Source of the DNA: an uncultured Candidatus Saccharibacteria bacterium
GTDB lineage: Bacteria; Patescibacteriota; Minisyncoccia; JAHIHE01; JAGLIN01
Direction of reading: 5' to 3'
Assembly: GCA_964412905.1 (NCBI GenBank)
Contig: CAYPQL010000002.1
Span: forward strand, 1 to 40,756
DNA length: 40,756 nt
The translations under genes and the position numbers were made by a program. The notes below the pieces were generated by a model. That model saw only the letters and a list, made by a program, of their open reading frames with translations. It had not been told where the DNA came from and did not search any database. Shown here in pieces: positions 3,483-38,675 of the stretch. Every line of letters starts with the position of its first letter. Positions within the stretch are counted from its first letter, which is position 1.

Positions 3483-3592
3483 TGTCATTCTGAACTTGTT
3501 TCAGAATCTGTTTCGTGATAGGTTTTGCTATTGTTTGTTTTACAAGCATAGATGTAGCAGGCGAAAGATCCTGAAATAAATTCAGGATGACA
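3483..3592. repeat. palindromic MITE-like element, family B (TGTCATTCTGAA...TTCAGGATGACA)
   Basis: Terminal inverted repeats, each end forming its own local hairpin (ATTCTGAA..TTCAGAAT and ATCCTGAA..TTCAGGAT). A second copy lies at 18890-18995. Confidence 0.75.
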
Positions 3593-3633: not shown

Positions 3634-5793
3634 CTAAACCACAATATTAACCAGCCTCCCTTTCACAAATATCACTTTCTTAATTTCTTTCCCTTCAATC
3701 CATTTTTTTACTTTCTCGCTTTCAAGGGCGAGTTTTTTGGCGTCGGTTTCGGAAATATCCGCCATAACCTTGATTTGATCGCGGAGTTTGCCGTTGATTT
3801 GGACTACTAAAATTATTTCTTTTTCTTTGGCTAATTCCGGATTATATTCAGGCCATTTTTGCAAATGAATGCTTTCTTTATTTCCCAGCGCTTCCCAAAT
3901 TTCTTCCGTGATGTGCGGGGCGAAAGGAGAAATTAGAATTAAGAATTTTGAATAATGAATTTTGGATAAATTGGTTTTTTCTCCGCCTTCGGCGGATCCG
4001 CCATAGGCGGACATTTCATTAAGCAAAATCATCAAGGCGGATAGGGCGGTATTGAATTTGAGGTTTTCAATATCTTCTGTGACTTTTTTGATTGTCTTGT
4101 GCAATAATGATTCTAATTTGGAATTTTGACATTGGATATTTGATATTGATTTGACATTTGACATTTGACATTTGACATTCAAATTCCATATCCTTTCCAA
4201 AAACCTATTCATTCCGACTAAACTAGTTGTTGACCACGGGATCGCGTCGCCGTAAGGTCCCATAAACATTTCATAAAGACGCAAAGTGTCGGCGCCATAT
4301 TTTTTTATGACATCGTCCGGGTTGACGACATTGCCGCGAGACTTGCTCATTTTTTGCCCGTCTTCCGCCAAAATCATTCCGTGCGATCGTCTTTTCGCGT
4401 AAGGTTCGGCTGTGTTTACATAGCCGAGATCAAACAAAAACTTGTGCCAAAATCTGGAATATAGCAAATGCAAAGTGGTGTGTTCCATTCCGCCGTTATA
4501 CAAATCAACGGGCATCCAATAGTCTATTAACTTTTTTGAATTTTGAATTTTGAATTTTGAATTTTGAATTTTTTGCATTGCGTATGCGAGGTAATACCAG
4601 CTTGATCCTGCCCAATTCGGCATCGTGTCCGTTTCTCGTTTGGCGTCATTTTTACAAACAGGACATTTCACATTCACCCATTTTTTAATATTAGCGAGCG
4701 GAGACTCTCCAGTATCCGTCGGCTCGTAATTTTTAACATTCGGAAGCTCCAGCGGCAAATCTTTTTCGGAAAGGGGAATGTTTTTTTCCGTGTTTACTAT
4801 TTCAAACTCCCAGCCGACAAGCCCGTTTTTTTCAATTCTACTAAGATAGTCTTTCGTAAAGCTAAAACATTTTTTAAAATCATCAAAACTTTTAATTTTT
4901 ATTTCTGGAATAATATTTTTTATTAAACTTTTTTCTTTATAAAGCTCTTCTAAATTTTTGAAATTATAGACTTTATTGATTTTGACGATTTCAAATTCTC
5001 CGGTATTTTTATTGTTAAACTTGACGAAATCTCCAATTTTAATATTTCCAAAGTATTTATTTTTTTCCTCAGGATTCAAAGCTCTGGTTTCTATGGTTTT
5101 CTTGTTCTCTATGATTTGTTTCCATATATTCTGATCATAAAAACTCAATTCGTTTTTAATTTTTAAATCTTTCAATCCGCAATTCTCGCATTTCACAATC
5201 GGAATCGGCTCGCCCCAATAATGCTGACGAGAAAAGACCCAATCACGGAGCTTGTAATTTACAGCTTTTTTGCCGAGGTTGTCTTTGGAGAGCCAGTCGG
5301 TGATTTGTTCTTTAAATTCTTGTGTTGTTAATCCGTCGAATTTCCCAGAATTTATGGCAACACCATTTTCTGTTAATGCTTTTTCGCCATTTAAAAACGC
5401 ATCCCAGAAAATTTTTAATTCTTGCAGATTTAAAAAATTATTTACTTCATCTTTTTTTATCCAAAGCCCGTCGTGGTTTTTTATCTCTTCTTTTTTTGGC
5501 TCAACAAAACTATCGTCCAATAATTCAATATAAATGCAATTTCTTTCTAAATCATGGCGATTTACATCTTTATGCGCTGCAAAAAAACGACTGTGAATTG
5601 TATTTCCAATTTTTCTCACGACGCGCATATTTTGATAGCCGGATTCTTCTTTTGATTCTCTAATAGCCGCTTCTTCCGCAGTTTCTCCTTTTTCAATGCC
5701 GCCAACAATAAAAGTTTTCCAATCATTCTTGCTTTTACTCCAATCTAAACAGAAATACTCATCTTTATTCCAGTGTTTTATTATAACATCCAC
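3634..5793 (-). CDS. leuS: leucine--tRNA ligase, C-terminal segment (in frame with the N-terminal segment, separated from it by a single TAA)
   Basis: LeuRS hallmarks: VNYKLRDWVFSRQHYWGEPIPIV, the KMSKS loop (DGQKMSKSRGN) and a C-terminal anticodon-binding region. The frame is open continuously from nt 5877 down to the tracked GTG at 5793. Confidence 0.85.
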   Translation of the reverse strand: MDVIIKHWNKDEYFCLDWSKSKNDWKTFIVGGIEKGETAEEAAIRESKEESGYQNMRVVRKIGNTIHSRFFAAHKDVNRHDLERNCIYIELLDDSFVEPKKEEIKNHDGLWIKKDEVNNFLNLQELKIFWDAFLNGEKALTENGVAINSGKFDGLTTQEFKEQITDWLSKDNLGKKAVNYKLRDWVFSRQHYWGEPIPIVKCENCGLKDLKIKNELSFYDQNIWKQIIENKKTIETRALNPEEKNKYFGNIKIGDFVKFNNKNTGEFEIVKINKVYNFKNLEELYKEKSLIKNIIPEIKIKSFDDFKKCFSFTKDYLSRIEKNGLVGWEFEIVNTEKNIPLSEKDLPLELPNVKNYEPTDTGESPLANIKKWVNVKCPVCKNDAKRETDTMPNWAGSSWYYLAYAMQKIQNSKFKIQNSKKLIDYWMPVDLYNGGMEHTTLHLLYSRFWHKFLFDLGYVNTAEPYAKRRSHGMILAEDGQKMSKSRGNVVNPDDVIKKYGADTLRLYEMFMGPYGDAIPWSTTSLVGMNRFLERIWNLNVKCQMSNVKSISNIQCQNSKLESLLHKTIKKVTEDIENLKFNTALSALMILLNEMSAYGGSAEGGEKTNLSKIHYSKFLILISPFAPHITEEIWEALGNKESIHLQKWPEYNPELAKEKEIILVVQINGKLRDQIKVMADISETDAKKLALESEKVKKWIEGKEIKKVIFVKGRLVNIVV
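4150..4177. repeat. heptamer tandem array (TTTGACA x4) inside leuS
   Basis: Direct read. On the coding strand it encodes part of NVKCQMSNVKSISNIQCQ. Degenerate 7-mers extend upstream to about 4130. Confidence 0.9.
4544..4578. repeat. heptamer tandem array (TTTTGAA x5) inside leuS
   Basis: Direct read. Encodes [14 protein letters not shown] with a 7-aa period (3 units = 21 nt). Confidence 0.9.
4780..5175 (-). other. ASCH/PUA-like domain inserted in LeuRS
   Basis: About 130 extra residues lie between the conserved KCENCG and IPLSEKDLPLELP. The segment WKQIIENKKTIETRALNPEEKNKYFGNIKIGDFVKFNNKNTGEFEIVKINKVYNFKNLEEL...GLVGWEFEIV matches the remembered ASCH pattern (G-KT-E-R ... GD ... F ... sfeel ... 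vaieF). Confidence 0.5.
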
Positions 5794-5810
5794 GACTTTT
5801 CTTTCTGTAT
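5390..5810 (-). other. Nudix hydrolase domain inserted in LeuRS
   Basis: A near-perfect Nudix box, GGIEKGETAEEAAIRESKEESGY (nt 5703-5635), fits GX5EX7REUXEEXGU. It lies between the end of the CP1/editing region ([15 protein letters not shown]) and the conserved INSGKFDGL motif. Confidence 0.75.
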
Positions 5811-5877
5811 TTTCTTTATCTTTTCTAATTTTATTTTTTCCTTCACCAATGAATAATGGCGCTACAACTTGTACAAA

Positions 5878-7122
5878 TTACAAATTATACTTCCTCGCAA
5901 ACTCCCAATCTCTTTCATCATGCGCCGGCACGGCCATAATCGCGCCAGTGCCGTAACTCGCTAAAACATAATCCGCGACCCAGACTGGAATTTCTTCTCC
6001 GCTTGCGGGATTAGTTGCCTTAATTCCTTTCAATTCCACTCCCGTTTTTTCTTTCGCCAAATCAGTTCTGTCCAAGTCGGATTTGTTTTTCGCCTGCTCA
6101 ATATACTTTTCAACTTCATCGTAATTTGTAATTTGTAATTTGTAATTTGTAATTAGCTCGTGTTCCGGAGAAATAACCATATAAGTGCAACCGAATAAAG
6201 TATCCGGACGGGTGGTAAATACTTCTACGAAGAATTTTGAATTTTGAATTTTGAATTTTGAATTTATTTGATATTTGGAATTTGATATTTGGAATTTTAT
6301 CACCGCTCCTTCCGATTTGCCAATCCAATTAACTTGTTGTGTTTTGATTTTATCCAAATAATCAACCGTATCCAAATCTTTAATTAGTCTGTCCGCGTAT
6401 TTTGTGATGCGGAGCATCCATTGCTTCATTGTTTTTTTCTCCGCTTTAGCATGGCACCTTTCACATTCGCCCCCGACAACTTCTTCATTGGCTAATCCGA
6501 TTTTGCAGCTTGGGCACCAGTTTATAGACATCCTGGCTTCATAGGCTAATCTGCGCTCGTCAATATATTTATTTACGGAGCTCAACTCCGAGGCTTCGGA
6601 GCTAAGCTCCTTGTCTTTTTCTAAATCTTTCGGAATTTCCAACTCTTCAATCGGCCGCGCTTTATCCAGTTTCTCATCATAAAAACTATTGAATAATTTC
6701 AAAAAAATCCACTGCGTCCACTTGTAATATTCAGGATCAGTGGTGTTTATTTCCCGCGACCAATCAAAACTCGGGCCGTAGCTTTTGATCTGGCGAGTGA
6801 AATTTTTGACATTGTTTTTTGTGACGATTCTGGGGTGCGTCTTTGTCTTAATCGCGAAATTCTCCGTCGGCAATCCGAAAGCGTCCCAGCCGATCGGATA
6901 CATCACATTATATCCGCTCATTCGCTTTTTCCGCGCGACAATATCAATGGCGATATGGCTTCGCAAATGCCCCACATGAAGCCCCGCGCCAGAAGGGTAG
7001 GGGAATTCAATTAGGCAATAATACTTCGGCTTTTTTGAAAAATCCTCAGCACTATAAATCCCGCTCCTATCCCATTCCTTCTGCCACTTTTTCTCAATTT
7101 TCTTCGGATTGTATTTTTGCAT
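5878..7122 (-). CDS. leuS: leucine--tRNA ligase, N-terminal segment (ends at an in-frame TAA, 5880-5878)
   Basis: HIGH motif ([10 protein letters not shown]), a zinc-knuckle region ([13 protein letters not shown]), and editing-domain motifs TTRPDTLFG and [16 protein letters not shown]. Confidence 0.9.
6122..6156. repeat. heptamer tandem array (TAATTTG x4 plus one variant) inside leuS
   Basis: Direct read. Encodes [10 protein letters not shown]. Confidence 0.9.
6232..6298. repeat. compound tandem array (GAATTTT x4-5, then TTTGATATTTGGAA x2) inside leuS
   Basis: Direct read. Encodes [23 protein letters not shown]. Confidence 0.9.
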
Positions 7123-8271: not shown

Positions 8272-8409
8272 ATGAGTTTAGCTAATGATTTGGGATGGTG
8301 GTGGTTTGAACTGCGCATTGATATCAAGTGGCACAGGAGATGGTACTTGATAATGGCGACGCTCATAGCGTGCGCTATTATTACGCTAACAATAGGCATA
8401 TCAAATTAA
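8272..8409 (+). CDS. candidate small membrane protein (45 aa)
   Basis: Below the ORF-track length cutoff. Strong SD (AAGGAGGTG) 6 nt upstream of the ATG. The product MSLANDLGWWWFELRIDIKWHRRWYLIMATLIACAIITLTIGISN has a Trp/Arg-rich head and one TM helix. Its 3' end overlaps the convergent metG stop by 9 nt. Confidence 0.45.
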   Translation: MSLANDLGWWWFELRIDIKWHRRWYLIMATLIACAIITLTIGISN

Positions 8410-10068
8410 GCGCGGGAACAAGCTCTCGCCTTTTTTTATTTTCGCGCCATGTTTCAATCCGCCCCATTTTTGCGCTTCGGTTAAAGTTTTAGATAATTCT
8501 ACAGCCCTTTCTTTTCCGTCCGCAAACAATTGCGTAAATATTTTATCCGAAGTTTCGGGCATAAACGGGCGAATCATCCATGCGATATGGCGCAAGCTTT
8601 CTAGCAAATTATAAATCACTTTCGCTTTATCTTCCCCTTCCATCTGCCACGGCTTATTTTTTTCAATATATTCATCGCAACTGCTCATAAATTTTCTTGT
8701 CATTTCCAAAGCCTCGTTTAGTTTGAAATTATTTAAGGACTTTTCATAATCCAGCCAAGCATTTTTAATTGTAGTCTCAAATTCTAAATTTCCAATTTCC
8801 AATTTCCAATTTCCAATTTCTATTTTCTCCGCCATCGCCAAAACCCTTGCCGTTAAATTCCCCAGCCCGTTCGCCAGATCTGCTTGATAGATTTCCTCAA
8901 ATCTTTCGTAGGAAAAATCGCCGTCTCCGCCGGAGGGAATTTCTTTGAGGAGAAAATATCGCAAAGCGTCAACGCTTTTATATTTATTAACAACTTCAAA
9001 CGGATCAACAACATTGCCGATGGACTTGCTCATTTTTTGCCCGCCGGAAGTTATAAATCCGTGGACGAATATTTTTTTAGAGAGAGGCAGTTTCGCCGAT
9101 AAAAGCATCGCCGGCCAAATTGCGGCGTGAAATCTCAAAATATCTTTTCCGATTAAATGGATGTCTGCTGGCCAGTATTTTTGGAAATTAACTTGATTAT
9201 CAGACTGTTTAGGAATTGTCATTTCGAGCCCTCGCGAGAAATCTGAATTTTTAGAAATATCTGCGATTTTAGATTTCTCGCTGATGCTCGAAATGACAGG
9301 ATTTTTATTTTTCGCATAGTCTGGATTATCTCCATAACCCAGCGCGGAAATATAATTTGTAAGGGCGTCGCACCAAACATACATTGTCTGAGTTTCGTCG
9401 TCTGGAACCGGCACGCCCCAATCTAAAACGGTTTTGGACCTTGAGAAACTAATGTCTTTCAAGCCGATTTTAACAACATTAAGTATCTCATTTTTTCTGG
9501 ACTCCGGAACAATTTTCAATTCGTCGGATTCTATGAGTTTTTGAATTTTGTCCGAATATTTAGAAAGCTTAAAAAAATAATTTTCTTCCTTGATTTTCTC
9601 TGGCGCTTTTTGATGATTTGGGCAATTGCCATTAATCAAATCTTTTTCAGTGATATATTCCTCGCAGCCAACGCAATAATATCCTTCATAATTTGATTTA
9701 TAAATATCTCCCGCTTCAACAAGCTTCTTCCAAATTTTTTGCGCCGCCGGCCAATGGCGGATTTGATCGGTAGTTCTGATAAAATCGTCATTGGAAACAT
9801 TAAGCCTGTCCAATAACTCTCTGAACTTTACCGAATTTTTATCTACAAAATCCTGCGGCGCCATTTTATTTTTCTCCGCGGTTTTTTTTATTTTTGTGCC
9901 GTTTTCATCTGTTCCCGACAAAAAGAAAACATCCTCGCCAAGCAACCTATGGAACCTCGCCAAAACATCCGCCTGCAAAATTTCCAAAGCATACCCAATA
10001 TGCGGCGCGGCATTGGCATACGCGATTGAAGTGGTTATGTAGAATTTTTTTTGTTTAGGGGTTGACAT
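8401..10068 (-). CDS. metG: methionine--tRNA ligase
   Basis: HIGH-type motif (AAPHIGYALE), KMSKS (GGQKMSKSIGN), a CxxC..CPNH knuckle, and WPADIHLIGKDILRFHAAIWPAML. Confidence 0.93.
   Translation of the reverse strand: MSTPKQKKFYITTSIAYANAAPHIGYALEILQADVLARFHRLLGEDVFFLSGTDENGTKIKKTAEKNKMAPQDFVDKNSVKFRELLDRLNVSNDDFIRTTDQIRHWPAAQKIWKKLVEAGDIYKSNYEGYYCVGCEEYITEKDLINGNCPNHQKAPEKIKEENYFFKLSKYSDKIQKLIESDELKIVPESRKNEILNVVKIGLKDISFSRSKTVLDWGVPVPDDETQTMYVWCDALTNYISALGYGDNPDYAKNKNPVISSISEKSKIADISKNSDFSRGLEMTIPKQSDNQVNFQKYWPADIHLIGKDILRFHAAIWPAMLLSAKLPLSKKIFVHGFITSGGQKMSKSIGNVVDPFEVVNKYKSVDALRYFLLKEIPSGGDGDFSYERFEEIYQADLANGLGNLTARVLAMAEKIEIGNWKLEIGNLEFETTIKNAWLDYEKSLNNFKLNEALEMTRKFMSSCDEYIEKNKPWQMEGEDKAKVIYNLLESLRHIAWMIRPFMPETSDKIFTQLFADGKERAVELSKTLTEAQKWGGLKHGAKIKKGESLFPRLI
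8791..8825. repeat. heptamer tandem array (TCCAATT x4 plus one variant) inside metG
   Basis: Direct read. Encodes EIGNWKLEIGNLE on the coding strand. Confidence 0.9.
9217..9298. repeat. palindromic MITE-like element, family A, inside the metG reading frame
   Basis: TGTCATTTCGAGC..GCGAGAAATCT..AGATTTCTCGC..GCTCGAAATGACA. It is translated in frame as PVISSISEKSKIADISKNSDFSRGLEMT, just upstream of the conserved YWPADIHLIGKD block. Confidence 0.85.
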
Positions 10069-11051: not shown

Positions 11052-11079
11052 AAATTAGAAATTGGAAATTAGAGATTGG
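11052..11079. repeat. heptamer array (AAATTAG/AAATTGG x4) abutting the rsmI start codon
   Basis: Direct read. It is followed by CAACTACT x2 (11081-11096). Confidence 0.85.
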
Positions 11080-11121: not shown

Positions 11122-11207
11122 TGTCATTTCGAACGCCTCGTGAGAAATCTAAGCGTTATAGAAATATCTAAAGTTTATAGATTTCTCGCTAATCGCTCGA
11201 AATGACA
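11122..11207. repeat. palindromic MITE-like element, family A
   Basis: TGTCATTTCGAAC..GTGAGAAATCT..AGATTTCTCGC..GCTCGAAATGACA. Intergenic. Confidence 0.85.
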
Positions 11208-14037: not shown

Positions 14038-14122
14038 TGTCATTTCGAGCATGTCGCGAGAAATCTATAATCTTTAGATATTTCTACATGCTCAGATTTC
14101 TCACGATGCGTTCGAAATGACA
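14038..14122. repeat. palindromic MITE-like element, family A
   Basis: TGTCATTTCGAGC..GCGAGAAATCT..AGATTTCTCAC..GTTCGAAATGACA. Intergenic. Confidence 0.85.
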
Positions 14123-18889: not shown

Positions 18890-18995
18890 TGTCATTCTGA
18901 ATTTATTTCAGAATCTATTACATGCTACATCTAGCCCAAAATAAGCAAATATAACTTTAGCAGTAAGAAGATCCTGAAACAAGTTCAGGATGACA
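18890..18995. repeat. palindromic MITE-like element, family B
   Basis: TGTCATTCTGAATTTATTTCAGAATC ... GATCCTGAAACAAGTTCAGGATGACA. Second copy of the element at 3483-3592. Confidence 0.8.
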
Positions 18996-20040: not shown

Positions 20041-20089
20041 GCCGCGGAGAGGCTTAGCCTCCAAATTGGAGGCTAAGCCTCTCCGCGGC
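20041..20089. repeat. perfect 22-bp-arm palindrome with a 5-nt spacer
   Basis: GCCGCGGAGAGGCTTAGCCTCC AAATT GGAGGCTAAGCCTCTCCGCGGC. Relatively GC-rich, with no flanking T-run on either strand. Lies between holB and the lipoprotein gene. Confidence 0.9.
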
Positions 20090-22073: not shown

Positions 22074-23183
22074 ATGATAATAACTACAATAATTTTATTT
22101 TTGTTGATACTTGGGCTTATAGTGTTTTTTCACGAACTGGGGCATTTTTTTATGGCTAAGCTTTATGGCGTGAAGGTGGATGAGTTTGGAATCGGATTTC
22201 CTCCTAAAATTTTTGGATTTAAAAAAGGGGAAACCGAATATACATTAAACTGGATTCCTTTGGGCGGGTTTGTAAAAATTGTGGGCGAGGACGGGGGCGA
22301 CAAAGACGATCCGAGAAGTTTTTCTTCCAAAAGCATAAGCAAAAGGTTTCAGATAATCTCCGCCGGCGTTTTGATGAATTTTTTTATAGCTTTTGTGATT
22401 TTCAGCTTTATTTTCGCGATTGGCGCTCAAATGAATATTGCGGGAGAAGATTTGTCAAAAGCGAAAAGCGTTGAAAATCAAGAAGTTGTGATCTCAGAAG
22501 TTTTAGAAGAAACTCCTGCAAAAGATGTCGGACTTCAGATAGGAGATGCCATCTTAAAAGCTGATGAAAAAGAAATTAAGAGCATAGAAGATTTGCAAAA
22601 TTATACAAAAGAAAATCTTGGCGAAACTTTAGCTTTAACTATTTCCAGAAATGGCGATGTAAGTGTCAAGGAAATTATTCCCAGAAAAGAATATCCCGAA
22701 AACGAAGGGGCTATGGGAGTTTCTTTGGTGAATACTGCCGAAGTTTCGTTTTCTATTCCAGAAGCTATCAGAAGAGGCTTTGAATGGACCGTGTATTTGA
22801 CAATGTTTATTATTTCCGCTTTCGCGGGAATTCTTTGGAATCTTTTCGCGACCGGAAAAATGGTCGCCGAAGTTTCCGGGCCGGTTGGAATTGCCGCTAT
22901 GACCGGTCAGGCGGCGTCGCTCGGGTTTATCGCGGTTCTGAATTTTATCGCTCTAATCAGCGTAAATCTTGCCATCATTAACGCGCTTCCATTTCCGGCT
23001 CTTGACGGCGGGAGATTATTATTTTTGATTGTTGAAAAAATAAAAGGTTCGCCGCTGAATCAAGCATGGGAAGCAAAAGCGAATAATTTCGGCTTTATGC
23101 TCTTGATGGGCTTGATGATAATCGTAACATTCAAAGATGTTTTGAAGTTTGATGTTTGGGGGAAAGTTATGGGGTTGTTTTAA
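22074..23183 (+). CDS. rseP: RIP (site-2) zinc metalloprotease RseP, M50 family
   Basis: HELGHFFMAK (HExxH), a central PDZ-like segment, and C-terminal NALPFPALDGG. Confidence 0.92.
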   Translation: MIITTIILFLLILGLIVFFHELGHFFMAKLYGVKVDEFGIGFPPKIFGFKKGETEYTLNWIPLGGFVKIVGEDGGDKDDPRSFSSKSISKRFQIISAGVLMNFFIAFVIFSFIFAIGAQMNIAGEDLSKAKSVENQEVVISEVLEETPAKDVGLQIGDAILKADEKEIKSIEDLQNYTKENLGETLALTISRNGDVSVKEIIPRKEYPENEGAMGVSLVNTAEVSFSIPEAIRRGFEWTVYLTMFIISAFAGILWNLFATGKMVAEVSGPVGIAAMTGQAASLGFIAVLNFIALISVNLAIINALPFPALDGGRLLFLIVEKIKGSPLNQAWEAKANNFGFMLLMGLMIIVTFKDVLKFDVWGKVMGLF

Positions 23184-23204
23184 CCTATTAATTTTATTTA
23201 TAGC

Positions 23205-23244
23205 TAGTATAATTTTTCTGACGACCGTCAGAAAAATTATACTA
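23205..23244. repeat. perfect 19-bp-arm palindrome with a 2-nt spacer
   Basis: TAGTATAATTTTTCTGACG AC CGTCAGAAAAATTATACTA. Each arm contains TATAAT. Lies between rseP and the next gene. Confidence 0.9.
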
Positions 23245-23274
23245 TTGGGTTGGAATAAGTATTTAAACAAAAAA

Positions 23275-23640
23275 ATGAAAAAGAAAAGCATCAAAAAGAA
23301 AAAAGAAAAAATGACCATAGATAAATTGGCTGAATTGACACAGAGAGGATTTGAGGCGTTGGGAGGCGAAATGAAAAGTGAAATTAACGGTCTAAGGGGC
23401 GAAATGAAAAGTGAAATCAGCGATTTAAGGGGCGAGACAAAAAGTGAAATCAGCGATTTAAGAGGCGAGATGAAAGAGAAGTTTTATGCAGTTTTAAATA
23501 ATCAAGATCAGATTTTGAAAAGATTGGAGGATTTAGAAACTGATAATACAATGGATGTGTCTGCTCATCGCAGACACGAAGACAAGCTGGAAAGTCATGA
23601 AATAAGGATTGTTGCCGTGGAGAATAAAGTTTTAGCTTGA
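23275..23640 (+). CDS. coiled-coil hypothetical protein with 11-aa tandem repeats
   Basis: The start is moved to ATG 23275 (23311 is also possible) because the tracked 23149 start overlaps rseP and reads through the palindrome. A 33-bp unit occurs 3.3 times (23368-23478) and encodes (L)RGEMKSEIxx. Confidence 0.65.
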   Translation: MKKKSIKKKKEKMTIDKLAELTQRGFEALGGEMKSEINGLRGEMKSEISDLRGETKSEISDLRGEMKEKFYAVLNNQDQILKRLEDLETDNTMDVSAHRRHEDKLESHEIRIVAVENKVLA

Positions 23641-24586: not shown

Positions 24587-25948
24587 ATGAAATCACCAAT
24601 TTTAAATTCACCATATTTTGAACCGGGTCGTCATTTTAAAGCTGACGAACGCGGCCTAACCGAAGATATCGTTGAAAGCCGCCGGCCAAGCAGTTTTTAT
24701 ATTCCTGTTTCTCGCGCTAAGACGAAACAAAAAAAGATGGAGTTTAACACTGCTGAAGGCGCTTTTGGCAGTGAATTACAAAAAGAAAATGAATTTATCA
24801 ATAAACTTCGCGCGAAAATAAAAAATTGGCGCGCAAACGGATACGCCGGAATTACAAAAACATCTCGCGATTTGCTTTCTTATTGGCAAGATGACACAAG
24901 GGAAAACAAACTTTTCTTTTGCCAAATTGAAGCGCTTGAAACTCTTATTTATATAAATGAAGTTGCTGAAAAAGCCGGCGAAAGCTGGATTATTAGCGAG
25001 CTAAAAAAAGCATCTGCGGAAGCGAATCCGGGTCTTTATCGTTTAGCTTTTAAAATGGCAACCGGATCAGGGAAGACAGTTGTGATGGCAATGATTATCG
25101 CTTATAACACGCTGAACAAAATTCGCTATCCACAAGACACTCGATTTACCGATACTTTTGCTATTATTACCCCCGGCATTACCATTCGCGATAGATTAAA
25201 TGTTCTTTTGCCGAATGATTCAAAAAATTATTATAAAGAGCGTGCGGTTGTTTCGCCGCAGGATCTTGATTTATTGCAACAGGCAAATATTTTTATAACA
25301 AATTTTCATCAATTAGAACAAAGACAAAATTCGCGATTCCAAGTTGGCGGAGTTATGAAAGCGGCCGGACTTTTAAAAAATGAAGCGATGAAAGAAAGCC
25401 CGGGCGCTATGGTCAATCGCGCGTTTAAAAGTATTTTGAATAAATCGCGCGTCTTAGTAATCAATGACGAAGCCCATCATTGTTATCGAGAAAAGCCGAC
25501 GGAAGAAAAACTTGCTGGTGAAGACAGGAAAGAAGCGGACGAAAATAACAAAGCCGCTCGCGTGTGGCTGAGCGGATTGGAAGCGCTATCTAAAAAAATG
25601 TCGGTCAATGCGGTAATTGACTTATCTGCCACGCCTTATTTTCTTAGGGGTTCGGGATATCAGGAAGGCACAATGTTTCCCTGGACTATTTATGATTTTT
25701 CATTATTAGACGCTTTGGAATGCGGGGTAGTAAAAATTCCGCGTTTACCTGTCGAATCAGATACGGTTGGCAATGATGATATTCCGGAATTTCGCAATCT
25801 TTGGCTTCATGTTTCCGACGCGTTGCCTAAAAAAGGAATGAAAACCGGCGGTAAAGATTATTTATCTTCCAATGTGTTGCCTAAAACTCTTCAAGAAGCG
25901 CTGATGTCACTGTATGGCAATTACGAAGAAAAATACTATCGGCGTTAG
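24587..25948 (+). CDS. res: Type III-like restriction enzyme Res subunit, N-terminal part (helicase lobe 1; ends at an in-frame TAG)
   Basis: Motif I (MATGSGKTVVM), motif II (VINDEAHHC) and motif III (DLSATP). N-terminal ILNSPYFEPGRHF is typical of this Res family. Confidence 0.85.
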   Translation: MKSPILNSPYFEPGRHFKADERGLTEDIVESRRPSSFYIPVSRAKTKQKKMEFNTAEGAFGSELQKENEFINKLRAKIKNWRANGYAGITKTSRDLLSYWQDDTRENKLFFCQIEALETLIYINEVAEKAGESWIISELKKASAEANPGLYRLAFKMATGSGKTVVMAMIIAYNTLNKIRYPQDTRFTDTFAIITPGITIRDRLNVLLPNDSKNYYKERAVVSPQDLDLLQQANIFITNFHQLEQRQNSRFQVGGVMKAAGLLKNEAMKESPGAMVNRAFKSILNKSRVLVINDEAHHCYREKPTEEKLAGEDRKEADENNKAARVWLSGLEALSKKMSVNAVIDLSATPYFLRGSGYQEGTMFPWTIYDFSLLDALECGVVKIPRLPVESDTVGNDDIPEFRNLWLHVSDALPKKGMKTGGKDYLSSNVLPKTLQEALMSLYGNYEEKYYRR

Positions 25949-25978
25949 GAGGAAGAAAAAAATAAAAATCAAACCGTA

Positions 25979-27544
25979 ATGCCGCCGGTAATGATTATTG
26001 TGTGTAATAATACGGCGGTTTCTGAATTGGTTTATCGTTGGATCGCTGGATTTGAACGCGAGACTCCAAGCGGAAAGATAAAAATTGAAGAAGGTAATTT
26101 GAAAATTTTTAGAAATGAAGACGGCACGCGTTTTTTTGACAAGCCCAATACTCTCATAATCGATAGCCACCAATTGGAAAGCGGCGAAAAAATTGATGAT
26201 AATTTTAAAAAAATATTTGCGGCTGAAATTAAAGATTTTCACAAAGAATATAAAAAGCGTTTTCCCGGCCGCGAAGAGCCGACTGACGAGGAGTTGCTCC
26301 GCGAGGTCATGAATACTGTCGGCAAGCCCGGCAAACTGGGAGAAAATATCAAATGCGTGGTTTCAGTTTCAATGCTCACGGAGGGATGGGATGTAAACAC
26401 CGTCACACATATTCTTGGCATTCGCGCTTTTTCCACTCAATTACTTTGCGAGCAGGTTGTCGGTCGCGCGTTGCGCCGGGTTGATTATAGTGTTGATGAA
26501 TCTACGGGATTTTTATCCGAAGAATACGCCGAGGTTTATGGCGTGCCTTTTAGTTTTTTGAAAGTAGGCGGCGAGACGGCGCCAAAACCGCCAAAAGTTA
26601 TTCATCGCGTTCATGCGCTGCCGGATCGCGAACAATATGAAATCACATATCCGCGCGTAGAGGGTTATCGTTATGAATTAAATGAAACTAAACTGGCCGC
26701 AAAATTCAGCGAGGAATCAAAAACAATTATTGAAAACGAGCCGACGGAAGTTACTCTTGGCGGAGTAATTGGCGAGGAGACCTTGGAAACACTGGAAAAA
26801 ATAAAAGAACGACGCGAAGGCGAGGTAATTATCCGTTTATCAAAGGCTCTTCTTAAACGCTATTATACTGATGCCGAAGGTGCAGAAAAATATTGGCTTT
26901 TTCCGCAATTGCAAAAAATTACCGAAGAATATGTCAAAAAATATGTTGTGCTAAAAGACAGAATGGTTATCGGTTATCTTACTATGGGAGAATATTTTTC
27001 CGGCGCGCTTACCAAGATTCAGCAAGCGATTATTTTTGAAAATTTGGAATATCAAAAAGATAAACAGCTTTTGCCGATTCTTGCGCCTTATGACACGATC
27101 GGTTCAACTCGTTACATCGATTTTTTAACGACGAAAGAAGTCGGAGAAACGACAAAAAGCCATATCAATTATGTCGTGGCGGATACTGAAGAATGGGAGC
27201 AAGGCGTTGCCAAAAAACTGGAACAAATGTCTGAAGTTTTAGCGTATGTTAAAAATCAAAATATGGGTTTTTCTATTCCTTACGAGCATCAAGGCGTAGC
27301 CCATCAATATTTGCCGGATTTTATCGCGATTTTGGAAATGCCGGATAAAAGTAAGCTTAACTTGTTAATTGAAGTAACCGGCAAAAAAGAAGATAAGAAA
27401 AAAATGAAAATCAAGACCACTCGCGATCTTTGGGTGCCGGCAATCAATAATTTCGGCAAATATGGCAAGTGGGCGATTTTGGAAGTTCAAGATATTCATG
27501 AAACGCAAAATTTGATACACTCTTTAATAAATTTACAAGAATAA
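25979..27544 (+). CDS. res: Type III-like restriction enzyme Res subunit, C-terminal part (helicase lobe 2 plus PD-(D/E)xK nuclease)
   Basis: Same frame as 24587-25948, with only TAG 25946-25948 intervening. PPVMIIVCNNT, motif V (MLTEGWDVNTV), motif VI (QVVGRALRR), and a C-terminal nuclease-like YLPDF...LLIEVTGKK. Confidence 0.85.
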   Translation: MPPVMIIVCNNTAVSELVYRWIAGFERETPSGKIKIEEGNLKIFRNEDGTRFFDKPNTLIIDSHQLESGEKIDDNFKKIFAAEIKDFHKEYKKRFPGREEPTDEELLREVMNTVGKPGKLGENIKCVVSVSMLTEGWDVNTVTHILGIRAFSTQLLCEQVVGRALRRVDYSVDESTGFLSEEYAEVYGVPFSFLKVGGETAPKPPKVIHRVHALPDREQYEITYPRVEGYRYELNETKLAAKFSEESKTIIENEPTEVTLGGVIGEETLETLEKIKERREGEVIIRLSKALLKRYYTDAEGAEKYWLFPQLQKITEEYVKKYVVLKDRMVIGYLTMGEYFSGALTKIQQAIIFENLEYQKDKQLLPILAPYDTIGSTRYIDFLTTKEVGETTKSHINYVVADTEEWEQGVAKKLEQMSEVLAYVKNQNMGFSIPYEHQGVAHQYLPDFIAILEMPDKSKLNLLIEVTGKKEDKKKMKIKTTRDLWVPAINNFGKYGKWAILEVQDIHETQNLIHSLINLQE

Positions 27545-27551
27545 GTTTTAT

Positions 27552-29180
27552 ATGGTTAAAACAACAGAGGAACAATTTAAAAAATGGTTAGAAACGCCTG
27601 AGGAAGGATTGCATTTAGAATTTAAAAAAGCTGAAAATAATTTTAATAAATCAAAAGATTTGCCCGATTATTGCGCTGCTTTGGCGAACGAAAGGGGTGG
27701 TAAATTGATTTTAGGTGTTACCAATGATAGGATTGTGACTGGTACAAGAGTTTTTTCTGGAACAGTCCAGACACTGCCAAATGACCTTATGCAGTTGATA
27801 GGAATCAGAATTGATATTGAAGAATTTTTTTATGAAGGCGAACGAGTTTTAATTTTTCATATTCCCAGCCGTCCGATTGGCAAGGCCATTAAATCAAATA
27901 AGGTTTATTGGATGCGAGCCGGCAGTTCTTTGGTTCCGATGGATGAGGAAACGCTTAAAAATATCTTTAATGAAAATATAGTTGATTTTTCAAGTCAAAT
28001 AGTCCATGGCATGATTCTTGCGGATATTAGTGGCGAGGCAATAGATATTTTTCGGAACAAATGGGCGAAAAAACAAAACCAACCGAAATATCTTGAATTT
28101 TCTGACGAAAAAACTTTACGCGAAGTTGGTTTGATGGATGAAAATAATGGCATAACATATGCCGCATTAATTTTATTTGGAAATAAAAATAAAATCGATC
28201 AATTTATTCCTTGCGCGGAAATAAGTTATGAATGGCGAATGTCCAATACGATAGAACATGATTTCCGTGCTAATTGGCGCGAACCATTTTTTAAAGTTTA
28301 CAATGCTATCTGGCAGGAAACTAACAATAGAAATATCAGATTTCCTTATCAAGAAGGTTTCGTTCAGCGAGAAATATTGGCTTTTTCTGAAAAAGTAATT
28401 CGTGAAGCGGTTTTAAATGCTGTGGCCCACAGGGATTATTCAATTCAAAACGGCTGGATTTTCATAAAAGCCTCTCCATATGAATATAAAATCGAAAGTC
28501 CTGGCGGTTTTTTGCCCGGTATAACGGAGGACAATGCTATAGATCGTCGTGCGACAAGAAATAGGCTTATTTGTGAAATTTTTGAAAAAGCAGGTTTAGT
28601 AGAACGCTCTGGCCAAGGAATTGATCTTATCTTTGAGATTACAATCAGAGAAGGAAAGGGTCTCCCGAGTTTTAAGGGTACGGATAATTATCGAGTAGTT
28701 ATTAATATTCCAGCCGAAGTAAAAGATTTTGGCTTTGTTAAATTTATTGAAAAGATAGCGAACGAAAAACAGCTTAACTTTTCTACAGAAGAAATTATTG
28801 AATTGGAAAGGATAAAAGAAAATGGAAAAATAAAAGGAAACAAGTTTATAAAGAAATTTTTAAGTTTAGGGATTATTGAAAAAGTTGGTAAAACAAGTAA
28901 TTTGTCATATATGTTATCGCATAGATATTATATTAATGAAGGAAAATCTGGCGTTTATACACGAATAGCCGGTTTATCGAGGGAAGAAAAGAAGCAGTTG
29001 ATCCTTAATCATATTCAAAAAAATAAAAAAGGATACGCTAAGGATTTTAAAGACGGGCTTTCTGACATTAAATCAAAAGATGTGTCAAACTTTTTGCAAG
29101 AATTAAAAAAAGAAGGGAAAATAATTCATAAAGGATCAGATAGAAGCGGCTATTGGGAAATTCAAGTTAGCAGTAATTAG
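27552..29180 (+). CDS. Schlafen-like AlbA_2 domain plus HATPase_c_4 (RecG-C-like) ATP-binding protein with a C-terminal wHTH
   Basis: N-terminal EGLHLEFKKA....LPDYCAALANERGGKLILGV fits the AlbA_2 pattern. The middle region REAVLNAVAHRDYS...IESPGGFLPGIT...RNRLICEIFEKAGLVERSGQGI fits the HATPase_c_4 pattern. It starts 7 nt after the res stop. Confidence 0.8.
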   Translation: MVKTTEEQFKKWLETPEEGLHLEFKKAENNFNKSKDLPDYCAALANERGGKLILGVTNDRIVTGTRVFSGTVQTLPNDLMQLIGIRIDIEEFFYEGERVLIFHIPSRPIGKAIKSNKVYWMRAGSSLVPMDEETLKNIFNENIVDFSSQIVHGMILADISGEAIDIFRNKWAKKQNQPKYLEFSDEKTLREVGLMDENNGITYAALILFGNKNKIDQFIPCAEISYEWRMSNTIEHDFRANWREPFFKVYNAIWQETNNRNIRFPYQEGFVQREILAFSEKVIREAVLNAVAHRDYSIQNGWIFIKASPYEYKIESPGGFLPGITEDNAIDRRATRNRLICEIFEKAGLVERSGQGIDLIFEITIREGKGLPSFKGTDNYRVVINIPAEVKDFGFVKFIEKIANEKQLNFSTEEIIELERIKENGKIKGNKFIKKFLSLGIIEKVGKTSNLSYMLSHRYYINEGKSGVYTRIAGLSREEKKQLILNHIQKNKKGYAKDFKDGLSDIKSKDVSNFLQELKKEGKIIHKGSDRSGYWEIQVSSN

Positions 29181-29333
29181 CAGTAATTTAGATGTAATTT
29201 TAATAACAAGCGCTTGTTATAAAGGAAAACCGGTTATTAAATTAGATGTAAATATAACAAATCATCAATGGTTATAAAATGATAATTTTAATGTTTTTTA
29301 TAAATAAACCTTTAAAATAATTTTTTAATAATT

Positions 29334-31826
29334 ATGCCGAGAAAAAAAACAATACTGCCGGTAACTGCCGCATCGGTTAAATCTTATAAACACAAAAATA
29401 AGCGTGTTCGCATTCCGACACAAGAAGAATCGATCAAACTTTCGGCGCGCGAGAAACAACCGGTTAAAACAAAATATGATTATGATCCGTCGCTGGATCC
29501 GCAATTAATTTGGGCCGGCAAAAAAGAGCAAGGCGCGGAATTGGCTGTGCCGACCGTGCCGATTTATGTGCAGGAAAAAATCGCGCCGGAGGCGATTATC
29601 GCGCGCCTAAAGCAGGGGACAAAAGAAGAAACCCAGTATTCTCTTTTTGGCGAAACGGCGCAAGAGCAGTTTGATAAAACAATAGAATTTTATAAGCATG
29701 AGGATAATTGGCAAAACCGTATGATTCTGGGCGATTCACTTTTGGTAATGAATAGCTTGCTGGAAAAAGAAGGTATGCGCGGACGGGTACAGATGATTTA
29801 TATTGATCCGCCATATGGAATCAAGTTTGGCTCTAATTGGCAGGTTTCCACGAGAAAACGGGATGTGAAAGATAATAAGCTGGAGGACTTTATTCGCCAA
29901 CCGGAACAGGTTAAGGCCTTTCGCGATACTTGGGAATTAGGTATTCATTCTTATCTTTCTTATTTGCGCGATCGGCTTTTAGTTGCCCGCGAGCTTCTAA
30001 CTGAAGGCGGAAGTTGTTTTGTGCAGATAAGCGATGAAAATGTGCATTTGGTCAGGAATTTAATGGATGAGGTATTTGGAAGTAATAATTTTGTAAGTCA
30101 AATTACATTAAAACGGGCTTCGGTTATGTTTACTAAAAAATATATAAAAAGCGATGTTTATTATGTTGTTTGGTTTGCAAAAGACATTGATCATTTGAAG
30201 TATCGCCAAATATACAAAGAACAAACCTTACAAGAATTTGCGGATAGCTCAGGTTCACATTTGTGGTTTGAGGAAGCAAATACAAAACAATGTACTAAAG
30301 CAACGCCAGAACAAAGGAAAAACATCGAAAAATATTTAAAAAATAATCCATCCCTAATTCCATTTTCGACACTTGGATTGAATGCCCAGGGCATAGAAAA
30401 ACAAAAACCTTTTAATTTTAAAGGGAAAGATTATTTTCCTCCAAAGGGGACTCAGTGGAAAAGCTCCTATATTGGCTTACAAAAATTGGTTGATATCGGA
30501 AGACTAATTATCGAAGGAAATAATATTAGATATAAATATTACCACAAAGATTATCCTGTTAGTGAAATGGGGAATTATTGGGAATCAATAGGCGCACCGG
30601 GAGATAAAATATATGTTGTTCAAACAAGCGAAGAAATTAATCGGCGTTGTATTTTATTAACAACCGATCCGGGCGATTTGGTTTTAGACCCGACTTGCGG
30701 CTCCGGAACGACTGCTTTTGTCGCCGAGCAGTGGGGTAGGCGATGGATTACCATTGATACTTCTCGCGTTTCTTTGGCGTTGGCGCGCACACGACTAATG
30801 ACGGCTAAATTTTCATGTTATAAACTCAAAGATAGACATAGCGTTTCAGCCGGATTTGAATATAAAACCGTGCCGCATGTGACTTTAAAATCTCTCGCCA
30901 ATGATGAGCCGGCGGAGCGGGAAGTTTTATACGATCAGCCGTTTGAAAATAAAGATATTGTTCGCGTGTCTGGTCCGTTCACGGTTGAATCTCTTTCGCC
31001 GCATCGAGTTTCCGACGCGCAAGAAATGCTTTCTTCCGAGCGATTTGTGGAAACGATTGTCAGTAATCTTTTGAAATCCGGCGTACAAACCGGTGAAAAA
31101 GGCGCGCGGGTGGAATTTGTAAATCTGGATATTTTGCCGAGTGGCCCGGAAGTGCAGGCCGTCGGAGAATATAAAACTAATGACGGATTGAAAAAAGTCG
31201 CGGTTTCTATTGGCCCTGAATTTGGCAGTATTGACGATGATTTCATTCGCGATGCCTCCACTATTGCCAAGAAATTCGCCGATCTTCTCGTAATTGCCGC
31301 TACATCTTTTGAAGCATCGGCGTTTTCCGAGCCGACACAAGTCAATGGTTTGCAAATAATGAAAGTAAAAATCAACCCGGATTTGTCTATGGGCGATTTG
31401 CTTAAAAAAACCAGCTCTGGCAATTTATTTATCGCCTTTGGCGAGCCGGAAGTGAAAATTAAAGAAACAAAAGATGGCGTGACGGTGGAAATTGTCGGCG
31501 TGGATATTTATGATCCGGTAAAAAGCGAAATTCGTTCTAGTGGCTCTGGCGATCCGGAACATGAAATTGCCGCATGGTTTATTGATACCAATTACAATAA
31601 AGAAGCGTTTTTTGTAACTCATGCCTACTTCTTGGGCGCTAATAAGCCGTATGAGAAACTAAAAAAAGCGCTGAAAGCCGATATTGACGAGGCTGCGTGG
31701 GAAGAATTATATTCCACAATTTCCCGACCGTTTGCAAAACCAAAAACCGGCAAAATCGCTGTGAAAGTTATCAATCATTATGGCGATGAAGTTATGAAAA
31801 TTATTGAAATTAAACAAGGGAGGTGA
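29334..31826 (+). CDS. mod: Type III-like DNA methyltransferase Mod (beta-class N6A/N4C MTase)
   Basis: Motif IV (IYIDPPYG) lies upstream of motif I (LDPTCGSGTTAFVA), which is the beta permutation typical of Mod. N-terminal DPSLDPQLIWAGK...PIYVQEKI is typical of the family partnered with this Res type. Confidence 0.88.
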   Translation: MPRKKTILPVTAASVKSYKHKNKRVRIPTQEESIKLSAREKQPVKTKYDYDPSLDPQLIWAGKKEQGAELAVPTVPIYVQEKIAPEAIIARLKQGTKEETQYSLFGETAQEQFDKTIEFYKHEDNWQNRMILGDSLLVMNSLLEKEGMRGRVQMIYIDPPYGIKFGSNWQVSTRKRDVKDNKLEDFIRQPEQVKAFRDTWELGIHSYLSYLRDRLLVARELLTEGGSCFVQISDENVHLVRNLMDEVFGSNNFVSQITLKRASVMFTKKYIKSDVYYVVWFAKDIDHLKYRQIYKEQTLQEFADSSGSHLWFEEANTKQCTKATPEQRKNIEKYLKNNPSLIPFSTLGLNAQGIEKQKPFNFKGKDYFPPKGTQWKSSYIGLQKLVDIGRLIIEGNNIRYKYYHKDYPVSEMGNYWESIGAPGDKIYVVQTSEEINRRCILLTTDPGDLVLDPTCGSGTTAFVAEQWGRRWITIDTSRVSLALARTRLMTAKFSCYKLKDRHSVSAGFEYKTVPHVTLKSLANDEPAEREVLYDQPFENKDIVRVSGPFTVESLSPHRVSDAQEMLSSERFVETIVSNLLKSGVQTGEKGARVEFVNLDILPSGPEVQAVGEYKTNDGLKKVAVSIGPEFGSIDDDFIRDASTIAKKFADLLVIAATSFEASAFSEPTQVNGLQIMKVKINPDLSMGDLLKKTSSGNLFIAFGEPEVKIKETKDGVTVEIVGVDIYDPVKSEIRSSGSGDPEHEIAAWFIDTNYNKEAFFVTHAYFLGANKPYEKLKKALKADIDEAAWEELYSTISRPFAKPKTGKIAVKVINHYGDEVMKIIEIKQGR

Positions 31827-33987: not shown

Positions 33988-34100
33988 TGTCATCTCGAAA
34001 TGAGCATCAGCGATTGAGAGATCTAAAAGCTATATTTAAATCAACCGTTCTTTCCGTATTCTATTGTTCATAGATTTCTCGCGACACGCTCGAAATGACA
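33988..34100. repeat. palindromic MITE-like element, family A (longer, degenerate copy)
   Basis: The left end TGTCATCTCGAAATGAGC is degenerate. The right end AGATTTCTCGCGACACGCTCGAAATGACA is canonical. Confidence 0.65.
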
Positions 34101-38537: not shown

Positions 38538-38549
38538 AAATTGGAGATG
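38515..38549. repeat. heptamer array (GAAATTA/TAGAAAT x4-5) spanning the mrdA stop
   Basis: Direct read. Same unit family as the arrays at 11052-11079 and (in complement) 8791-8825. Confidence 0.9.
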
Positions 38550-38590
38550 AAAAATAATAAATTATCTTGAATTGCGAAATGAGTTGAAAG

Positions 38591-38675
38591 TGTCATTTCG
38601 AGCACCTTGCGAGAAATCTGTATGCGGGAGAAATATCTAAAGTTTATAGATTTCTCGTTGATACTCGAAATGACA
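38591..38675. repeat. palindromic MITE-like element, family A
   Basis: TGTCATTTCGAGC..GCGAGAAATCT..AGATTTCTCGT..ACTCGAAATGACA. Intergenic. Confidence 0.85.

Follow-up and report, generated by a model that had tools for sequence, protein, structure and literature searches.

A REP-type hairpin doublet in frame within metG of a patescibacterium, and a candidate GIY-YIG partner of its family

We describe a palindromic element of 82 bp that lies in frame within metG, the gene for methionyl-tRNA synthetase (MetRS), on contig CAYPQL010000002.1 of an uncultured Candidatus Saccharibacteria bacterium (assembly GCA_964412905.1); the stretch of DNA analysed, here called the window, is 40,756 nucleotides long. 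Among the systems closest to it, the Rickettsia palindromic elements (RPEs), reportedly described by Ogata and colleagues in 2000, are said to sit in frame in essential protein genes and to add surface peptide segments without loss of function. RPE-1, the first of them to be described, is reportedly longer (about 100-150 bp) and a single long hairpin.

Repetitive extragenic palindromic (REP) sequences tagged with CGTC, comprising families CGTC-1 to CGTC-4, were surveyed by Di Nocera, De Gregorio and Rocco in 2013 (BMC Genomics 14:522, PMC3733652). According to that survey the tag is 'changed to TGTC ... in many repeats', with a CCTC variant as well, and is followed by an 8-9-bp stem starting A-T/T-A, a loop of 4-5 nt and an unpaired 3-nt tail, mostly CCA. 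Head-to-head dimers with the tags outside and the partners 1-100 bp apart predominate, and copies are dispersed and mainly intergenic, favouring sites downstream of open reading frames (ORFs) in unidirectional or convergent contexts; no dedicated transposase or associated enzyme was found for them. The same survey places RPE-6 of R. conorii in CGTC-1 and RPE-4 in CGTC-4, and reports occasional in-frame intragenic doublets that encode 20-30 aa, tRNA synthetases among their hosts. Its supplement gives two such cases from Erythrobacter litoralis, in-frame CGTC-1 doublets in the glycyl-tRNA synthetase beta subunit (GlyRS-beta; VVPAKAGTS...IPASAGMT) and in isoleucyl-tRNA synthetase (IleRS; VTPAEAGVS...IPASAGMT). 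REPINs, the partners of RAYT enzymes (Bertels and Rainey 2011, PMC3116915; Nunvar 2010; Ton-Hoang 2012, PMC3333891), are likewise inverted doublets of REP hairpins with many gene-less copies; their movement is believed to depend on a trans-acting enzyme whose single-copy gene has these hairpins on both sides, and they leave no target-site duplication (PMC3116915, PMC3333891).

Judged by its anatomy, the metG element is a gene-less head-to-head doublet of TGTC-tagged REP hairpins belonging to the CGTC-tagged REP superfamily. We consider it highly probable that such a doublet, one of a dispersed family, landed in a tolerant linker of MetRS, persisted there and is translated. Like the CGTC REPs, the units in the window share a tetranucleotide tag (the TGTC variant), an A/T-starting stem of 8-9 bp and a loop of 4-5 nt, are arranged head-to-head with their tags outward, and are mainly intergenic and downstream of ORFs. 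They differ in a new stem, ATTTCGAGC/GCGAGAAAT, which contains two G.A pairs, and in the tail, which is mostly CCA in the CGTC REPs but CTN in the window and most commonly CTC, CTT or CTG in the cross-phylum census below, where CCA is rare (it is present in the ATTCCTGC/ATTCCCGC families). The hosts differ too (Patescibacteria, Chloroflexota, Nitrospirota, KSB1 and more, outside the five phyla listed in PMC3733652), as does the presence, in other genomes, of a GIY-YIG gene between TGTC units.

The resemblance to RPEs lies in the insertion being in frame and in the peptide segment being absent from orthologues, although lineage and sequence are different and the link runs via PMC3733652 (RPE-4/RPE-6), not via RPE consensus sequences. 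Because the unit has the anatomy of a CGTC/TGTC REP and PMC3733652 places RPE-4 and RPE-6 among these, the parallel is probably closer than mere analogy. An earlier reading made from the sequence alone had already proposed an RPE-like event, that is, a repeated palindrome in frame that adds a lineage-specific peptide, and this view is borne out: the closest orthologue, 83% identical, lacks the element, and the baseline loop is 12 aa long. The same sequence-only reading had held that such an event in an aminoacyl-tRNA synthetase of an unrelated lineage would be notable; it is not new in kind, given the in-frame doublets in GlyRS and IleRS of E. litoralis (PMC3733652), which are read in the same frame (V.P...AGMT vs VISS...LEMT). 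With REPINs the metG family has in common the inverted hairpin doublets, the gene-less copies and the lack of target-site duplication. It departs from the REPIN/RAYT system in its tag, TGTC rather than GTAG (GT[AG]G), and in its putative partner gene, since what lies between TGTC units elsewhere is a GIY-YIG nuclease and not the HUH-Y1 (PF01797) transposase of RAYTs; a Pfam scan of 30 ORFs in the window, which makes 40.7 kb of the genome visible, gave no HUH-Y1 gene. A text search of the literature for the terminus sequence returned unrelated PCR primers only.

Anatomy of the metG element and its family in the window

The host ORF is MetRS by its PDB matches (down to E = 1e-125) and by its Pfam domains, which are those of a class I tRNA synthetase. 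The features of the locus are as follows.

8401..10068, minus strand: metG, MetRS, intact ORF of 555 aa
9196..9324 (about), minus strand: whole lineage-specific MetRS loop segment, residues ~249-291, 42-43 codons (43 aa by MAFFT)
9217..9298, no strand assigned: family A doublet of TGTC-tagged REP hairpins, head-to-head, inside metG, 82 bp
9217-9242, plus strand: unit 1 of the metG doublet, TGTC - ATTTCGAGC - CCTC - GCGAGAAAT - CTG
9273-9298, minus strand: unit 2 of the metG doublet, TGTC - ATTTCGAGC - ATCA - GCGAGAAAT - CTA

The element runs from TGTCATTTCGAGC to GCTCGAAATGACA (longer excerpt TGTCATTTCGAGCCCTCGCGAGAAATCTGAA...TTTAGATTTCTCGCTGATGCTCGAAATGACA) and its coding (minus) strand is read without a stop as VISSISEKSKIADISKNSDFSRGLEMT; the coordinates and the translation first proposed for an in-frame palindrome of ~82 bp at this place were exact and correct, respectively. 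Its two arms, of 31 nt each, are 84% complementary. Folding is strong on the plus strand (-43.6 kcal/mol, z = -10.3) as well as on the mRNA strand (-39.2 kcal/mol, z = -8.6), with 0 of 200 shuffles as stable. There is no terminator-like tail at the element, and a search of the whole window against Rfam gave no match at gathering thresholds and only generic hairpin (miRNA precursor) noise at relaxed ones. CUGAUG...GAAA in the metG copy recalls a hammerhead, a reading that we rejected because it applies to one copy only and lacks stem II.

The element contributes 27 codons and 1 nt to MetRS, where ~28-30 aa had originally been estimated for the added segment, but the whole lineage-specific segment, which sits between the YISALGYGD and FQKYWPAD blocks, is longer at 42-43 codons. 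The element does lie N-terminal to the conserved block, though not immediately so, with 13 residues between it and YWPAD. Of the 126 extra nt of metG, 82 belong to the REP doublet and ~44 to additional sequence on its flanks. The metG copy has an open coding frame, while the three intergenic copies listed below have 0/6, 0/6 and 3/6 open frames; the element is therefore not intrinsically coding. The metG copy is also shorter than the intergenic ones (82 vs 85-86 nt) and identical to none of them, and has either been filtered by selection or been trimmed later.

Nine occurrences of the 13-nt terminus were counted in the window, where 1.3 are expected and 0 of 100 shuffles reached nine. Eight of these occurrences form the pairs 9217/9298, 11122/11207, 14038/14122 and 38591/38675, and the ninth belongs to a single unit whose end is at 34100. 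When aligned, the family A copies also share an inner repeat, GAGAAATCT/AGATTTCTC, so that the kinship of the metG element with the copies at 11122, 14038 and 38591, noticed earlier, extends to both termini and inner repeat, with the single unit at 34074 to be added. A family A unit consists of the TGTC tag, a 9-bp stem ATTTCGAGC/GCGAGAAAT with two G.A mismatches (positions 6-7), a loop of 4-5 nt and a CTN tail. Family B units (TGTC - ATYCTGAA - 5-nt loop - TTCAGRAT - CT) have a perfect stem of 8 bp. A scan for this tagged-hairpin anatomy found 13 units in the window, nine of family A (four doublets and one singleton) and four of family B (two doublets). All 13 are preceded by the TGTC tag and have loops of 4 or 5 nt, their tails are CTA, CTG or CTT, and the tags point outward in 6/6 doublets, leaving one singleton. 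Besides the metG doublet they are distributed as follows.

11122..11207, no strand assigned: family A doublet, intergenic, 33 nt downstream of an AI-2E transporter gene
14038..14122, no strand assigned: family A doublet, intergenic, in the divergent region upstream of gyrB
38591..38675, no strand assigned: family A doublet, intergenic, 53 nt downstream of the PBP2 gene
34074..34100, minus strand: family A single unit between proS and mreB, TGTC - ATTTCGAGC - GTGTC - GCGAGAAAT - CTA
3483..3592, no strand assigned: family B doublet, 41 nt downstream of the C-terminal ORF of leucyl-tRNA synthetase (LeuRS)
18890..18995, no strand assigned: family B doublet, 53 nt downstream of map

At five out of six intergenic sites the repeat lies 33-139 nt downstream of a co-directional gene, and at the remaining one in a divergent region. 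The density of units (13 in 40.7 kb) far exceeds that of other Patescibacteria MetRS neighbourhoods (17 strict units in 982 kb), which indicates that the repeat has expanded in the source genome. In the related locus L001, with 84-92% nucleotide identity in shared genes, a family A doublet stands directly downstream of metG, where the window has none, and the MetRS loop is without one; from this pattern of presence and absence we infer recent turnover or transposition.

Hairpin units across phyla and the GIY-YIG gene

To define the family beyond the window, one genome per species was searched with a pattern made of the two termini only, R/Y being allowed at one stem position. At least 118 loci matched, in Chloroflexota, Bacteroidota, Beta-, Gamma- and Deltaproteobacteria, Nitrospirota, KSB1, anammox bacteria and others, and the inner stem GAGAAATCT/AGATTTCTC, though outside the search pattern, was present in nearly all census matches listed. 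When stem positions were left free (123 distinct elements), position 8 showed compensatory pairing within the unit (G-C 83, A-T 64, A-C plus G-T 5) and no correlation of arm with arm (66 same, 57 different); the conserved module is therefore the unit hairpin and not the long palindrome. Loops in other phyla range from 3 to 29 nt. Complete genomes found to be rich in such REPs include those of Mucilaginibacter conchicola, Thermonema rossianum and Flagellimonas flava. Across 128 copies no clear target consensus emerged, only a weak depletion of G just before the tag.

A copy in a Chloroflexota metagenome-assembled genome (MAG; L110:288-360, JAKOPZ010000353.1) is read in frame as AVISSGARNL...RRLEMT in an alpha-L-rhamnosidase, where it separates the Bac_rhamnosid_N domain from the Bac_rhamnosid domain; the phylum is another one, but the reading frame is that of the metG copy. 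In a Pfam scan of the long stop-free stretches around copies in other phyla this was the only convincing second in-frame case, the remainder being mostly upstream of the true start or high-G+C noise. A family A doublet is also carried by a contig labelled 'MAG: Rickettsia typhi' (L035, CAMCME010000049.1). According to PMC3733652, R. typhi is free of CGTC repeats, so the bin may be mislabelled or the contig wrongly assigned.

Beside clustered copies in 4 of the 118 listed census loci there is a small GIY-YIG ORF (PF01541). Complete mini-elements were found at three places.

L088:7281-7630, deltaproteobacterial MAG: 350 bp, TGTC hairpin, 98-aa GIY-YIG ORF, hairpin-GACA
L222:1165-1512, Roizmanbacteria MAG (Patescibacteria): outward TGTC hairpin, ~95-aa GIY-YIG ORF, inverted hairpin
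L255:1446-1809, cultured Flagellimonas flava: outward TGTC hairpin, ~95-aa GIY-YIG ORF, inverted hairpin

In the first of these the upstream hairpin reads TGTC - ATTTCGACC - GCA - GGGAGAAAT - CTTG, the stop codon of the 98-aa ORF abuts AGATTTCTCCCTTCGGTCGAAATGACA, and the gene occupies the position of the variable centre of doublets. Clusters of gene-less units occur near these mini-elements, as in REPtrons.

The association was also approached from the side of the protein, with 80 loci from many phyla, for whose choice similarity to the GIY-YIG protein was the sole criterion. Within 150 bp upstream, 46/80 loci have a tagged hairpin on the sense strand, and within 120 bp downstream 42/80 have one on the antisense strand; outward hairpins stood on both sides in 28 loci and on at least one side in 60 (shuffles: 0 and 0.55). 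The opposite orientations were far rarer (11 upstream, 20 downstream), and the background more than 300 bp away was 0.056 units per 190 bp. In 17 cases the downstream hairpin starts 0-8 nt after the GIY-YIG stop codon, and in six it supplies that stop codon itself. The stems vary by lineage with the gene, being ATTCCTGC in Flavobacteriia, ATCCTGAGC in Clostridia and ATTTCGACC elsewhere. The closest solved relatives of the ~95-aa protein, 1zg2 (BH0048, E = 8e-8) and 1ywl (EF2693, E = 9e-7), are uncharacterised structural-genomics entries of the UPF0213 (YhbQ-type) family. No paper tying GIY-YIG or UPF0213 proteins to REPs, hairpins or mobile elements was found in an incomplete literature collection.

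GIY-YIG enzymes are classic homing endonucleases. The relation might thus be the reverse, with REP doublets serving as landing sites for a free-standing homing-endonuclease gene while spreading by some other means. The weak TIGR01453 similarity fits that idea, as do the precise position of the gene in the variable centre of the doublet and the preponderance of gene-less doublets. It would, however, leave the spread of the doublets unexplained, and the joint variation of stem and gene between lineages is what a cognate pair of enzyme and site predicts. In addition, only the catalytic domain is matched in the ~95-aa proteins, which are without the DNA-binding extension typical of GIY-YIG homing enzymes. 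We hold this reversal to be unlikely.

A second alternative is a classical MITE (a miniature transposable element bearing inverted repeats), i.e. a deletion derivative of an insertion sequence with 13-bp terminal inverted repeats, moved by a DDE transposase with target-site duplication. It would agree with the identity of the inverted termini, with the length of 82-86 bp and with the dispersal of the element in several copies. Among the 128 copies, however, no duplication of 1-8 nt rose above a re-pairing control; the element thus lacks one of the features by which a MITE is defined. Covariation favours hairpins within the arms over pairing of the termini, and single units occur alone (34074-34100). 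Among the window ORFs there is neither a transposase of any kind (Y1 included) nor a GIY-YIG gene, and the gene between such ends elsewhere encodes a GIY-YIG nuclease rather than a DDE transposase. We regard this origin as improbable, and the term 'mobile-like' used for the element at the outset should not be taken to mean a MITE in the strict sense, given the missing duplication and the within-arm hairpin as conserved structure.

The MetRS linker as a site of insertions

Alignment with orthologues agrees with the expectation that the added segment is lineage-specific. The VISS...LEMT segment occurs in 0 of the 119 MetRS relatives listed, and the closest among them (P0002/L001, 83% identity) carries a different palindrome at the same place, a perfect one of 44 bp (AAAACGGAGCTCAACTCCGAAGCTTCGGAGTTGAGCTCCGTTTT). 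MetRS of the VISS...LEMT type was found in one sequence cluster only. In Patescibacteria the baseline loop, running from GY to KY/W, measures 12 aa, and alignments to PDB entries break at query residues 250 and 297 (skipping 251-296), where solved MetRS have 3-4 residues. An AlphaFold2 (AF2) model of the protein built from 56 sequences has a mean pLDDT of 87 and a pTM of 0.87, and matches 4dlp in Foldseek with a TM-score, normalised to the target, of 0.93. Residues 251-288 have pLDDT < 50 and no secondary structure; the insert is accordingly predicted by the model to be a disordered loop that leaves the MetRS fold intact. Elsewhere in metG, a tract of GAAATTG heptamers at about 8780-8830 is in frame and encodes EIGNWKLEIGN, in a variable region of lower AF2 confidence (residues 411-430). 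The heptamer recurs in the intergenic tracts 11052-11079 and 38517-38558, each ~40 nt away from a REP doublet (11122..11207 and 38591..38675).

The same loop has been occupied repeatedly. Of the 120 best MetRS relatives, 45 have at least 8 extra residues at exactly the site of the metG insert; these inserts fall into at least 10 unrelated families, and those examined at the DNA level, given below by locus, are palindromes.

L203 and L201: TGTC - ATTCCCGC - GAAG - GCGGGAAT - CCA monomers, read as CHSREGGNP
L200: TGTC heterodimer, read in the third frame
L124: TGTC monomer
L120 and L123: CCCCTCTTGAGAGGGG
L122: CGAGGTTCAACCTCG
L202: GGAGTTCA...TGAACTCC
L166: G/C-rich palindrome

Inserts at other MetRS sites look clade-inherited, and a palindrome-like peptide was seen at only two of them, in one sequence each. 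The cause of the hot spot is either targeting or mere tolerance. Short motifs from the ~44 nt around the metG doublet (DY-K, KQSDN) recur beside other inserts in relatives, hinting at an earlier round of insertion.

Such repeated occupation, together with the great stability of the hairpin, could also be read as the mark of a selected addition to MetRS (e.g. an RNA- or partner-binding peptide) or of a regulatory mRNA hairpin for metG expression, and aminoacyl-tRNA synthetases of reduced genomes do acquire appended peptides. The occupying sequences are, however, mutually unrelated in peptide and DNA, the peptide is predicted to be disordered and confined to its one cluster, and the searches for an Rfam match above noise and for a terminator-like tail described above were negative. 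A function of this kind seems very improbable to us, and the insert is most likely a neutral passenger. Less probable again is an assembly artefact, in which a repeat copy was misplaced in metG or two metG alleles were joined at the repeat. In its favour, the assembly is metagenomic and the repeat occurs in several copies, but the metG copy is a distinct variant in length and sequence, is stop-free in the coding frame and keeps that frame with its flanks, both halves of metG match the same orthologue, and independent assemblies have other palindromes at the same codon positions in orthologues. Finally, a strong hairpin in a coding region accompanies translational bypass in T4 gene 60, but that an insert which is in frame and stop-free (only ~15% of shuffled 84-nt frames are open at the 38% G+C of this genome), has no intron or ribozyme signature and could not be removed, at 82 nt, without shifting the frame should be excised from the mRNA or skipped by the ribosome, and so never be translated, is scarcely credible.

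A second aminoacyl-tRNA synthetase of the window has a palindromic insert in frame. The C-terminal part of LeuRS (minus-strand ORF 3634-5793) contains, at 3982-4011, a tandem pair of short hairpins, TCCGCCTTCGGCGGA and TCCGCCATAGGCGGA, coding for the nine residues SAYGGSAEG, which are absent from the three closest LeuRS orthologues (L001, L200 and L201) and have no second copy in the window. This LeuRS (3634-7122) is split inside its editing domain into an N part of 414 aa (5878-7122) and a C part of 719 aa (3634-5793) that starts with a NUDIX domain. The same three relatives have either the same split or a single ORF of 1172-1287 aa with PDDEXK_3, Ser_hydrolase or NTP_transf_5 inserted; no TGTC units were found bounding the domains inserted in relatives' LeuRS. 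The LeuRS ORFs also contain GAATTTT tracts, similar to those of GAAATTG, at 4523-4578 and 6224-6296.

Proposed origin and its meaning

We propose that one dispersed copy of family A inserted into the part of metG that encodes a short surface linker of MetRS, the one joining the helix ...DALTNYISAL to the strand ...HLIGKDI. It would have persisted because the linker tolerates extra residues and because the copy contains no stop and, counted with its flanks (126 nt), is divisible by three, and would now be translated as a disordered loop. The most likely route of movement would be single-strand or hairpin-directed cutting and joining by a nuclease supplied in trans, for which the ~95-aa GIY-YIG (UPF0213/YhbQ-like) protein is the best candidate. 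On the simplest reading the gene-less doublets derive from the GIY-YIG mini-element and were moved by its nuclease, and the 82-bp element in metG may be one such gene-less derivative. As a whole we judge this explanation to be likely; the GIY-YIG step of movement, taken by itself and resting on the genomic association, falls a little short of an even chance. More tentative still is a broader proposal with two parts to be held jointly. In it the TGTC/CGTC REPs would be non-autonomous offspring of a selfish element of ~350 bp (two outward hairpins and a ~95-aa GIY-YIG gene) whose nuclease is the missing mobiliser, and in Paceibacteria the MetRS linker would act as a natural 'insertion trap', keeping a record of successive invasions by these and other hairpin elements.

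Several points weigh against the proposed origin. At 82 nt the doublet is not divisible by three, and the ~44 nt around it are unexplained; the history of the metG insertion is not one simple event. No pair of empty and filled sites could be aligned, the metG-tatD spacers of the window and of L001 (where the doublet lies) being unalignable. The reading assumes translation through a hairpin of -39 kcal/mol. The trans-acting enzyme of the source genome is not visible within the 40.7-kb window, we know of no activity for UPF0213 proteins, and the association of GIY-YIG genes with the hairpins is a statistical one.

The window holds some further features apart from these families. Strong palindromes outside the TGTC family lie at 20041-20089, 2392-2470 and 23205-23244; one of them separates holB from the gene that follows and has perfect 24-bp arms, another, with 25-bp arms, shows partial conservation in L001, and a third, whose 19-bp arms are perfect, falls within the stop-free ORF 23149-23640. 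This ORF, which has no Pfam match, also contains three tandem coding repeats of 33 nt (GGCGAAATGAAAAGTGAAAT...) at 23365-23475. Amid housekeeping genes, a restriction/defence-like cluster at 24587-31826 encodes a ResIII helicase, a protein that weakly matches an endonuclease domain, one with Schlafen/AlbA_2 + HATPase_c_4, and an N6/N4 DNA methylase of 830 aa.

Translated REP/RPE doublets in essential genes are a known phenomenon, which is here extended to the ultra-small Patescibacteria, with a stem family that was previously uncatalogued and is common to many phyla. A 12-residue linker of MetRS that at least 10 palindrome families have entered independently among close relatives amounts to a natural assay of insertion tolerance and of the origin of new peptide segments. 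The close and orientation-specific placement of the hairpins about the GIY-YIG gene, which recurs across phyla, offers a testable candidate for the enzyme that moves CGTC-type REPs and the related RPEs, a question left by the 2013 survey. If true, this would be a GIY-YIG counterpart of the RAYT/REPIN system and would give the uncharacterised UPF0213 family a role.

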